From the NCBI RefSeq assembly GCF_044324875.1, contig NZ_CP172185.1: a stretch of 64,000 bases of DNA, one strand, 5' to 3'. The stretch is from Escherichia coli. GTDB lineage: Bacteria; Pseudomonadota; Gammaproteobacteria; Enterobacterales; Enterobacteriaceae. The notes below the pieces were generated by a model. It searched no databases and was not told where the DNA came from. It saw only the letters and a list, made by a program, of their open reading frames with translations. Position 1 is the stretch's first letter. Every line of letters starts with the position of its first letter. Below are positions 31,860 through 35,511 of this stretch, piece after piece. Made by a program: the position numbers and the translations under genes.

Positions 31860-32750
31860 ATGGAACTACGGCATTTACGCTATTTCGTCGCAGTGGCGCA
31901 GGCACTGAACTTTACCCGTGCGGCGGAAAAACTGCATACCTCACAGCCTTCGTTAAGCAGCCAGATCCGCGATCTTGAAAACTGTATCGGTGTTCCGTTG
32001 CTGGTGAGGGATAAGCGCAAAGTCGCGTTGACGGCGGCGGGAGAATGTTTTCTCCAGGACGCGCTGGCAATCCTCGAACAAGCGGAAAATGCCAAATTAC
32101 GGGCGCGGAAAATTGTTCAGGAAGACAGACAATTAACCATTGGCTTTGTGCCATCGGCGGAAGTGAATTTACTGCCAAAAGTATTACCGATGTTTCGTCT
32201 CAGACAGCCAGACACCTTAATTGAGCTGGTGAGTTTAATCACCACGGAACAGGAAGAAAAAATTCGCCGTGGTGAACTCGACGTCGGCTTAATGCGCCAT
32301 CCTGTTTATAGCCCGGAGATTGATTATCTGGAGCTTTTTGACGAACCATTAGTGGTGGTGTTACCGGTTGATCACCCTTTAGCACATGAAAAAGAGATCA
32401 CCGCCGCGCAACTGGATGGCGTGAATTTCGTCAGTACCGATCCGGCGTATTCCGGTTCGCTTGCGCCGATCGTTAAAGCGTGGTTTGCACAAGAAAACAG
32501 CCAGCCAAATATCGTCCAGGTGGCAACGAATATTCTGGTGACCATGAATCTGGTGGGCATGGGGCTGGGCGTCACTTTGATACCCGGTTATATGAATAAT
32601 TTTAATACCGGGCAGGTTGTTTTTCGTCCCATTGCCGGAAATGTGCCTTCCATTGCTTTACTGATGGCGTGGAAGAAAGGGGAGATGAAGCCGGCATTAC
32701 GCGATTTCATCGCCATTGTGCAGGAACGTTTGGCAAGCGTAACGGCATAA
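31860..32750 (+). CDS. hcaR: LysR-family activator of the hca operon
   Basis: N-terminal LysR HTH MELRHLRYFVAVAQALNFTRAAEKLHTSQPSLSSQIRDLE; divergent from hcaE; internal ATG start (296 aa). Confidence 0.9.
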   Translation: MELRHLRYFVAVAQALNFTRAAEKLHTSQPSLSSQIRDLENCIGVPLLVRDKRKVALTAAGECFLQDALAILEQAENAKLRARKIVQEDRQLTIGFVPSAEVNLLPKVLPMFRLRQPDTLIELVSLITTEQEEKIRRGELDVGLMRHPVYSPEIDYLELFDEPLVVVLPVDHPLAHEKEITAAQLDGVNFVSTDPAYSGSLAPIVKAWFAQENSQPNIVQVATNILVTMNLVGMGLGVTLIPGYMNNFNTGQVVFRPIAGNVPSIALLMAWKKGEMKPALRDFIAIVQERLASVTA

Positions 32751-32909: not shown

Positions 32910-34049
32910 ATGGTTTTGCAATCCACGCGCTGGTTGGCGCTCGGCTATTTCACATACTTTTTTAGTTACGGCATTTTTCTACCTTTCTGGAGCGTTTGGC
33001 TTAAGGGGATTGGTTTAACGCCAGAAACCATCGGCCTGTTATTGGGGGCAGGTCTGGTTGCCCGTTTTCTCGGGAGCTTGCTCATCGCGCCCCGCGTCAG
33101 CGATCCTTCTCGCCTGATTTCCGCCTTGCGCGTGCTGGCACTGCTGACACTTCTCTTTGCTGTCGCCTTCTGGGCGGGGGCGCACGTAGCGTGGCTGATG
33201 CTGGTGATGATTGGCTTTAACCTCTTTTTCTCACCGCTGGTACCGTTGACCGATGCACTGGCGAATACGTGGCAAAAGCAGTTCCCGCTTGATTACGGCA
33301 AAGTGCGATTGTGGGGCTCGGTAGCGTTTGTCATTGGCTCGGCGCTGACGGGCAAACTGGTCAGTATGTTTGATTATCGGGTGATCCTCGCGCTGTTGAC
33401 GTTGGGCGTGGCATCCATGCTGCTCGGCTTTCTCATCCGTCCGACGATTCAGCCACAAGGGGCAAGCCGCCAGCAGGAGAGCACCGGTTGGTCTGCGTGG
33501 TTGGCGCTGGTTCGCCAGAACTGGCGCTTTCTGGCCTGCGTTTGTTTATTGCAGGGGGCGCATGCGGCCTATTACGGTTTTAGCGCCATTTACTGGCAGG
33601 CTGCTGGCTACTCGGCCTCGGCGGTGGGCTATTTGTGGTCGCTGGGCGTGGTGGCGGAAGTCATTATCTTTGCGCTGAGTAATAAACTTTTCCGCCGTTG
33701 TAGTGCACGCGATATGCTGTTGATCTCAGCGATTTGCGGCGTAGTGCGCTGGGGCATTATGGGAGCAACTACGGCGTTGCCGTGGTTGATAGTGGTGCAA
33801 ATTCTGCATTGTGGCACCTTCACGGTCTGCCACCTGGCCGCCATGCGCTATATTGCCGCTCGCCAGGGTAGCGAAGTCATCCGTTTACAGGCGGTTTACT
33901 CTGCCGTCGCGATGGGCGGCAGTATCGCGATCATGACCGTTTTCGCCGGTTTCCTGTATCAATATCTGGGGCACGGCGTGTTCTGGGTGATGGCGCTGGT
34001 GGCGCTTCCGGCAATGTTTTTGCGCCCGAAAGTTGTTCCCTCATGTTGA
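32910..34049 (+). CDS. hcaT: MFS transporter (probable 3-phenylpropionate uptake)
   Basis: 379-aa, 12-TM-like hydrophobic protein; synteny after hcaR. Confidence 0.85.
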   Translation: MVLQSTRWLALGYFTYFFSYGIFLPFWSVWLKGIGLTPETIGLLLGAGLVARFLGSLLIAPRVSDPSRLISALRVLALLTLLFAVAFWAGAHVAWLMLVMIGFNLFFSPLVPLTDALANTWQKQFPLDYGKVRLWGSVAFVIGSALTGKLVSMFDYRVILALLTLGVASMLLGFLIRPTIQPQGASRQQESTGWSAWLALVRQNWRFLACVCLLQGAHAAYYGFSAIYWQAAGYSASAVGYLWSLGVVAEVIIFALSNKLFRRCSARDMLLISAICGVVRWGIMGATTALPWLIVVQILHCGTFTVCHLAAMRYIAARQGSEVIRLQAVYSAVAMGGSIAIMTVFAGFLYQYLGHGVFWVMALVALPAMFLRPKVVPSC

Positions 34050-35321
34050 TTCGAGCATTTTGCGGATCTGCTCCTGTTGATGTGTTGTCAGCGTCAGGTC
34101 CGTATAGATCAGCGGTGGTGAAAAGAGCGGTAATGGCATGGTATAAGGAGCAATAATCAGTGCCGCGCCGCGCGGAGCGCCTGTCTGCAAAAATACCTTT
34201 ACCGACATATGTTTAATGTTGAGCGGCAGTAACGTTAGTTCGCGTAGCTGCTGCTCAATCTGCGCTTCTCGCTCGCTATCATTCCCGGTCAGTAGAATAA
34301 TCTGTTTCTCATGCAGGTCGTTTTCCTGCATTAGCCAGGCACCAAAAATCACCGCGACCAGACCGCTTTCCTCATCAGAAAGATGGACGCCGTATTCACT
34401 TTCAAATCCGGCCAGCGCCGCGCGGGTGGTGCGCACCAGGCGTGGATACAGGCGGGCGAACTCTTCCGGCAGGGTGTTATCAATACCGATGGCAAACAAA
34501 CTGCGATTTAACGCCTGGGCGAGGTGGGTATAAAGCTGATCGCACAACCCCTGTTCATCATAAAAACGAACATTTCCCAGCTCACGAAAATGGTTTACCA
34601 GACGTTTGATAGACTTACGCAGTTGTCTGTCCCGCTGATGCGCATCCCGCAGTGGATCGGGAACCCGCAACATGGAAAAAAGTAATGCCATAAACAGTGG
34701 CTCATCAGGCGGTACAGGCTGGAGCGCCCGACGCTGCCAGTGGCGTCCAATTTCCTGCGCTACCTGAAATTCAAGGCAGGATTCCGCCCAGCGACGTTGG
34801 AGCGGATTAAACTGAGGCGTAATTCCAGCGTGGTGTTGCAGCAAACAATATTGCAGATACAGACACAGGAAATGAATATCGCGCGTTTCAAAGCGTTTTT
34901 GCAGCCGTCGGGAGCAGAGATTCACTAACGCTTGTAGATTGGTATCGTCGTAAAAGTTACGCGCAATTCCGCGTCGCTTCAGTTCACTCTTCTGGGCGGG
35001 GGTGAAATGGCTGGTAATAAATGACGGACACAGACGGAAACCACGTCGTAGCCAGTGAAATAAACACAAACGTTGGTTAAGCACTGTACCTTCAACCCGG
35101 TAGCTACCGTCATAACCAGTAGTCAGTGTGAGTTGATGATAGCGCAGGATCTCACGTCCTGTTTCGCTGATATCAAGACTGGCAATATCATCATCCACAC
35201 CATTAAGCTCGCTGAAAGTTGCCGTGGTGGCGGTCAACCCCGGCTGAAAGAGTGTCAGCAAGATCTGGCAGCGGCGCTGGGGAGCCGAAAGGACAGATGG
35301 TGGAGCAAGCGTAGGCATCAT
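34041..35321 (-). CDS. csiE: stationary-phase inducible protein CsiE
   Basis: 426-aa ORF from MMPTLAPPSVLSAPQRR...; 3' end overlaps the hcaT 3' end by 9 nt. Confidence 0.85.
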   Translation of the reverse strand: MMPTLAPPSVLSAPQRRCQILLTLFQPGLTATTATFSELNGVDDDIASLDISETGREILRYHQLTLTTGYDGSYRVEGTVLNQRLCLFHWLRRGFRLCPSFITSHFTPAQKSELKRRGIARNFYDDTNLQALVNLCSRRLQKRFETRDIHFLCLYLQYCLLQHHAGITPQFNPLQRRWAESCLEFQVAQEIGRHWQRRALQPVPPDEPLFMALLFSMLRVPDPLRDAHQRDRQLRKSIKRLVNHFRELGNVRFYDEQGLCDQLYTHLAQALNRSLFAIGIDNTLPEEFARLYPRLVRTTRAALAGFESEYGVHLSDEESGLVAVIFGAWLMQENDLHEKQIILLTGNDSEREAQIEQQLRELTLLPLNIKHMSVKVFLQTGAPRGAALIIAPYTMPLPLFSPPLIYTDLTLTTHQQEQIRKMLEST

Positions 35322-35511
35322 CTGTAGATCTCCCATAAGCATAATTGATAAGAATAGCTAAAGTTTGCTCAGGGAAATGGCGAAGGGAATGCTAATCATC
35401 AGAAATGTTGGCAAGCGTCACAGAATTTTTCTCATCTTAAACTGTTCTGACCAGTGGATTAGCATGTCTTAAGGTGGTTTTGTGAATGATTATCGTGCTA
35501 GCGATCATGGG

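Follow-up and report, generated by a model that had tools for sequence, protein, structure and literature searches.

The nine-nucleotide convergent overlap of hcaT and csiE in Escherichia coli and its place in the Enterobacteriaceae

Where two genes are read towards each other and their coding regions meet without any space between them, it may be asked how either transcript comes to an end, and whether the meeting of the two transcripts serves the regulation of either gene. This question is raised by hcaT, which encodes an MFS transporter, and csiE, which encodes a PRD-domain protein, in a stretch of Escherichia coli DNA of 64,000 nucleotides (referred to here as the window, to which all positions refer unless another sequence is named). 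The original prediction for this locus held that the two coding regions share nine nucleotides, that no room is left for terminators, and that the transcripts must overlap at their 3' ends, allowing mutual antisense interference. The features that define the junction are as follows.

32910..34049, plus strand: hcaT coding sequence, a 379 aa MFS transporter ending ...VVPSC, with a TGA stop at 34047-34049 (ORF list, Pfam, NCBIfam, and K-12 and PGAP annotation).
34041..35321, minus strand: csiE coding sequence, a 426 aa PRD-domain protein ending ...MLEST, with a TGA stop at 34043-34041 (K-12 annotated start).
34041..34049, both strands: the shared 9-nt segment (sequence).

Both the sequence itself and the ORF list give hcaT and csiE, on opposite strands, the same last nine bases, 5'-TCATGTTGA-3', and the overlap was correctly located and described in the original prediction, as was the lack of any intergenic space. 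Read on the plus strand, the shared segment supplies TCA (Ser378), TGT (Cys379) and the TGA stop of hcaT; read on the minus strand, TCAACATGA, it supplies TCA (Ser425), ACA (Thr426) and the TGA stop of csiE, and the stop of either gene is the complement of the partner's TCA serine codon. The figure of nine includes both stop codons, and only three nucleotides (34044-34046) are doubly coding, for Cys379 of HcaT and Thr426 of CsiE. At the other end of csiE the frame stays open for seven further codons upstream, to an ATG at 35342 (MLMGDLQ-MMPTL..., ORF 34041..35342 on the minus strand, with 35322-35342 as the extra part); the downstream start is the choice of the reference annotation and is also favoured by homologue alignment.

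ORFs, equivalog HMMs and RefSeq annotation agree that these are two genuine opposite-strand genes whose 3' coding ends, stops included, are held in common. HcaT is recognised by the Pfam models MFS_1_like/MFS_1, and the NCBIfam equivalog NF008346 (3-phenylpropionate MFS transporter) matches residues 1-378; CsiE contains Pfam PRD domains and is matched by the equivalog NF008597 (CsiE) over residues 1-425 of 426. The annotation of K-12 MG1655 places csiE at 2665435..2666715 and hcaT at 2666707..2667846, an identical 9-nt overlap, which is also present in the PGAP annotation of the closest complete genome. A 2.8-kb query recovered the locus from 5424 of the 5426 complete E. coli genomes; the 341-nt neighbourhood of the junction is 99.4% identical to several strains. 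The overlap itself is already known, having long been part of the K-12 reference annotation, and the overlap of the transcripts has been published twice.

The history of the junction was followed in 80 loci from the Enterobacteriaceae, with one genome per species (L003-L082), which were collected by alignment of CsiE homologues and in which both stops were placed by script; K-12 (L001) and the nearest complete genome (L002) are kept outside the species counts. The two genes are convergent neighbours in 78 of the 80 loci, the exceptions being a truncated contig and a Buttiauxella MAG, and the distances from stop to stop in the 78 are distributed as listed below.

-4 nt: 34 of 78 loci
-6 nt: 19 of 78 loci
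0 nt: 10 of 78 loci
-9 nt: 8 of 78 loci
-17, -22 and -77 nt: 1 locus each of 78
+2, +3, +38 and +89 nt: 1 locus each of 78

An overlap of some length is therefore found in 64 of 78 species, and overlap or exact abutment in 74 of 78. The geometry TCAGCATGA is common to K-12, E. albertii and E. whittamii. CsiE homologues across the family measure 424-426 aa and conserve ...IRxMLE[S/A], with only the last 0-2 residues variable, and HcaT tails are conserved up to ...LRPKV and variable thereafter. In one E. ruysiae-like genome (L004) a 3-nt TAA insertion stops csiE two codons earlier and the overlap is gone, from which it follows that the overlap is dispensable; it has also been lost in Enterobacter species, and its length is not conserved. 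The comparison makes the 9-nt form a variant of one lineage, at an old junction without a spacer that lies within the variable C-terminal tails of both proteins. The apparent age of the junction, and its nearly constant lack of a spacer across the family, form a new if modest result of the comparison.

The only sizeable spacers are those of Dryocola boscaweniae (L056 5237-5325, 89 nt) and Cedecea sulfonylureivorans (L059 5237-5274, 38 nt), and as both are palindromic and GC-rich, resembling REP elements, their sequence suggests that spacers at this position arise by REP insertion. Apparent larger overlaps are those of Kosakonia cowanii (L065 5262-5338, 77 nt), where the csiE frame continues beyond its usual stop, and of L049 (22 nt) and L037 (17 nt).

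The outer flank of hcaT is much less constant. Genes of the hca cluster (hcaR/hcaE) adjoin hcaT in only seven of the 78 species loci, among them a divergent genome labelled E. coli (L006), one Citrobacter, three Pseudocitrobacter and one Kluyvera; they are also beside hcaT in K-12 and its nearest complete genome, outside the 78, with hcaR at 31860-32750 of the window. In the other loci hcaT is flanked on its outer side by glyA, by a DoxX (yphA-like) gene or by an aldose-epimerase-like gene, and the interval between hcaT and glyA looks like a variable insertion site. The conserved unit is accordingly csiE/hcaT and not hcaT/hca, with the name 'hcaT' mirroring the context in E. coli; that the linkage of hcaT with csiE is far steadier than its association with the hca pathway, after which it is named, is a second modest novelty of this work. 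The framing of the junction as a phenylpropionate transporter set against a stationary-phase gene, which the original prediction adopted, was thus E. coli-centric, since hca genes stand beside hcaT in 7/78 loci and the csiE/hcaT pair holds in 78/80. The K-12 annotation also places a 21-aa product, IroK (b4706), at L001 4507-4572 (approximately 32685-32750 of the window), which has its 3' end in common with hcaR.

We consider it very probable that hcaT and csiE form a genuine but ordinary and already annotated tail-to-tail coding overlap. Huvet & Stumpf 2014 (PMC4161906) counted 663 overlapping adjacent pairs in E. coli, 75 of them convergent, and with about 75 convergent overlaps in this one species the present case is not statistically unusual. 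It resembles the short convergent overlaps of that catalogue without any substantive difference: the genes lie on opposite strands, they share a few codons including both stops, and an origin by stop-codon movement in poorly conserved C-termini fits both. The course of events would be that the convergent arrangement of csiE and hcaT, with no spacer, goes back to an early stage of the Enterobacteriaceae, and that their stop positions have drifted by point mutation or small indel in the non-conserved tails, so that the genes now overlap by 4, 6 or 9 nt or simply abut; such drift in dispensable tails is the standard model for convergent overlaps. Escherichia has the 9-nt version, 5'-TCA NNN TGA-3', with each stop opposite the partner's serine codon, an in-register form that is seen at this junction less often than the 4-nt overlap of most other genera.

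Against so plain an account it can be held that the junction is spacer-less in 74/78 species although the outer neighbours vary, which could reflect selection rather than inertia, and that the pair has been classed as an excludon from transcript data. The published transcript ends are informative here. In the Term-seq data of Adams et al. 2021 (PMC7815308, Supplementary file 1) a 3' end at MG1655 2666762 (+) is classed as 'primary' for csiE and 'antisense' for hcaT; it appears in the LB OD 2.0 sheet only, with a low average of ~1664 reads. Carried over by sequence register, this coordinate corresponds to 33994 in the window, which places the end of the csiE mRNA 47 nt beyond the csiE stop and 56 nt into hcaT.

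33994..34040, minus strand: csiE 3' UTR of 47 nt, antisense to the last hcaT codons, with the Term-seq end at 33994.

The restriction of this end to OD 2.0 fits the data on a sigmaS-bound csiE promoter and the status of csiE as a sigmaS target. For hcaT, no 3' end was mapped in the three conditions of the same Term-seq study, and the SMRT-Cappable-seq supplements mention neither gene. The second published source is ExcludonFinder (PMC12288877), which gives csiE-hcaT in its Table 1 as one of the 165 convergent excludons that it detects in 50% or more of 58 MG1655 RNA-seq sets. The transcripts of these opposite-strand neighbours do overlap, as had been claimed, the literature giving nucleotide resolution on the csiE side only.

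Whether this overlap amounts to a functional excludon is a separate matter. On such an account the spacer-less pair would be kept because csiE transcription runs antisense into hcaT and vice versa, giving reciprocal regulation, a proposal that we regard as unlikely; its suggested workings, in which carbon starvation induces csiE by way of sigmaS and cAMP-CRP and the effect is exerted through transcriptional interference or through cleavage of the RNA duplex by RNase III, strike us as equally doubtful. It draws on the ExcludonFinder listing, the csiE end mapped antisense to hcaT, the retention of the junction in 78/80 species loci while flanking genes vary, and the lack of intrinsic terminators that would insulate csiE from hcaT. 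It draws also on a tie between raised hcaT expression and altered survival in stationary-phase co-culture. Kotaka et al. 2023 found that hcaT has its own promoter, that SNVs in its -10 region raise expression, that the gene contributes in part to 3-phenylpropionate uptake and that an hcaT up-mutation affects survival in such co-culture.

Most of these points lose force on closer view. The ExcludonFinder criterion is near-automatic for overlapping coding regions, which makes the listing uninformative on function, and the mapped overlap extends over just 56 nt and was seen with few reads. The length of the coding overlap is not conserved, and the overlap has disappeared from the E. ruysiae-like genome and from Enterobacter species; a spacer of zero is in any case expected from mutational inertia, and the only two long spacers (+38 and +89 nt) have the appearance of REP insertions. 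The hcaT mRNA has moreover been reported among the three most stable E. coli mRNAs across growth stages, and this constancy argues against strong csiE-driven repression, with which it is hard to reconcile. Both genes are lowly expressed and the level of hcaT mRNA is conspicuously steady, so that any cross-talk between them is probably weak. The likeness to the excludon paradigm established in Listeria (and taken up by ExcludonFinder 2025) lies in the documented convergent 3' transcript overlap and the place of the pair in the E. coli list; the paradigm, however, has reciprocal expression, RNase III dependence and long antisense coverage, where csiE-hcaT has a mapped overlap of 56 nt and a constant hcaT.

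A bolder extension, that the spacer-less junction has been selectively kept across the Enterobacteriaceae as a cis-antisense module coupling the PRD starvation protein CsiE to the MFS transporter HcaT, we hold to be very unlikely. If it were true, csiE induction in carbon starvation would tune transporter expression via 3' antisense transcription, and the ancestral role of HcaT would be something other than 3-phenylpropionate uptake, the hca cluster having become its neighbour only in E. coli and some further lineages.

An ordinary overlap must still be reconciled with the ending of transcripts. A consensus scan of the window gave no terminator-like site downstream of the hcaT or csiE stop, and read-through RNA folds no better than shuffled sequences, whether the 76 nt that follow the csiE stop (z = -0.32) or the 161 nt that follow the hcaT stop (z = -0.35) are taken. 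Scanned for a hairpin followed by a U-tract within the first 150 nt past the stop in 79 loci, the csiE direction yielded 0/79 and the hcaT direction 6/79, counts no higher than the background of control windows placed deeper in the partner gene (0-10/79), and a search of Rfam by E-value found no RNA family at the junction, the one match lying elsewhere and being due to chance. A stable G+C-rich stem-loop with an A-tract and a U-tract past both stops, the mark of a bidirectional intrinsic terminator, was accordingly not seen, and a canonical intrinsic or bidirectional terminator in either coding region was set aside, as the consensus scan, the folding and the 79 loci with their controls gave nothing above background. 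That intrinsic terminators appear to be absent on both sides in all lineages examined is a third modest addition to what was known. As to the statement that there is no room for terminators, it holds insofar as no intrinsic terminator was found past either stop, but such signals may sit inside the partner gene, and the statement also ignores Rho and RNA polymerase collisions as ways to end transcripts.

One site inside hcaT does deserve mention in this respect.

33995..34012 (T-run to 34022), plus strand: a weak 5-bp hairpin followed by a T-run, inside the hcaT 3' coding region (consensus scan).

This hairpin might be seen as an embedded bidirectional terminator which, flanked by an A-tract and a T-tract, sets the csiE end at 33994 and also acts on the hcaT strand; the consensus scan flags it together with its plus-strand T-run, and the csiE Term-seq end is the base directly after it on the minus strand. 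We find the proposal hardly credible. The hairpin, which abuts the csiE end and lies ~30 nt before the hcaT stop, has a stem of just five pairs, including a G-U, around an 8-nt loop, and the region folds no more stably than shuffled sequence (the z of -0.32 given above). No U-tract precedes the csiE end at 33994, as termination in that direction would need; in the hcaT direction a stop ~30 nt before the stop codon would leave a non-stop mRNA; and no such element is enriched at this position over the 79 loci. It is probably not a functional terminator. Convergent pairs whose transcripts end near the gene boundary at bidirectional intrinsic terminators or by programmed head-on RNAP collisions have been described by the Liu laboratory (preprint), and csiE/hcaT is likewise convergent with a transcript end near the boundary; those systems, however, have an intergenic stem-loop with A- and U-tracts, of which none is detectable here or at orthologous loci.

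With neither a spacer nor an intrinsic terminator at the junction, both transcripts are bound to end within the opposite gene, and the composition of the read-through RNAs offers candidate regions for this.

33480..34040, minus strand: candidate Rho loading zone for csiE read-through RNA (C-rich, G-poor, untranslated), proposed from GC skew.
34240..34400, plus strand: putative first C-rich stretch of hcaT read-through RNA, 200-350 nt past the stop, proposed from GC skew.

Across 33480-34040 the GC skew on the plus strand runs from +0.02 to +0.33, except for one dip at 33800-33879, and in csiE read-through RNA C exceeds G in 74-96% of species loci. The hcaT read-through RNA is G-rich for its first ~150 nt, and across species the share of loci in which C exceeds G is 3% for nt 1-100 and 90-99% for nt 201-400. 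RNA of the kind used by Rho, untranslated, rich in C and poor in G, thus follows the csiE stop directly and the hcaT stop only from ~200 nt on, a composition that is permissive for Rho and falls short of proof. Neither gene is in the Rho-region table of Adams et al. 2021, but the cultures behind that table were at OD 0.4, where there is hardly any csiE expression. For an ordinary overlap of this kind, the csiE end would most likely be produced by Rho-dependent termination and/or exonucleolytic 3' trimming of the C-rich untranslated read-through RNA, and head-on encounters of polymerases may help to end transcripts when both genes are active. The hcaT transcript is predicted to end at least 200 nt into csiE, in antisense, the longer extension being expected because its read-through RNA becomes C-rich only 200-400 nt downstream.

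That the overlap is an artefact, created by faulty sequencing or by a wrongly called stop in one gene, is practically inconceivable: the T at 34046, which is private to the window and stands against C in the nearest genome, and a junction 60-mer without a 100% match among 5420 complete E. coli genomes might suggest it, but the change touches neither stop codon, the 9-nt overlap recurs in the same register in K-12, the nearest complete genome, E. albertii, E. whittamii and the divergent "E. coli" L006, both proteins match their equivalog models up to the last residues, and agreement across thousands of independent genomes had already refuted it. The concern that a shorter true frame or a sequencing error would remove the overlap is likewise excluded by concordant genomes, annotations and end-to-end equivalog matches, the locus recurring in 5424/5426 E. 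coli, the -9 form in eight other species and an overlap of any length in 64/78. In hcaT the T at 34046 makes a synonymous change (TGC to TGT), and in CsiE it replaces Ala426 with Thr, with both stops intact.

The importance of the hcaT/csiE overlap, as one of ~75 such cases in E. coli, is small, and it is felt mainly in strain construction, where edits at either 3' end hit both genes. The published Keio csiE deletion is a case in point, as its primer sits downstream of the correct site and the last transmembrane helix of HcaT is truncated in the mutant (PMC9431181; window 34041-34200), and phenotypes ascribed to csiE carry the caveat that this mutant truncates hcaT as well.
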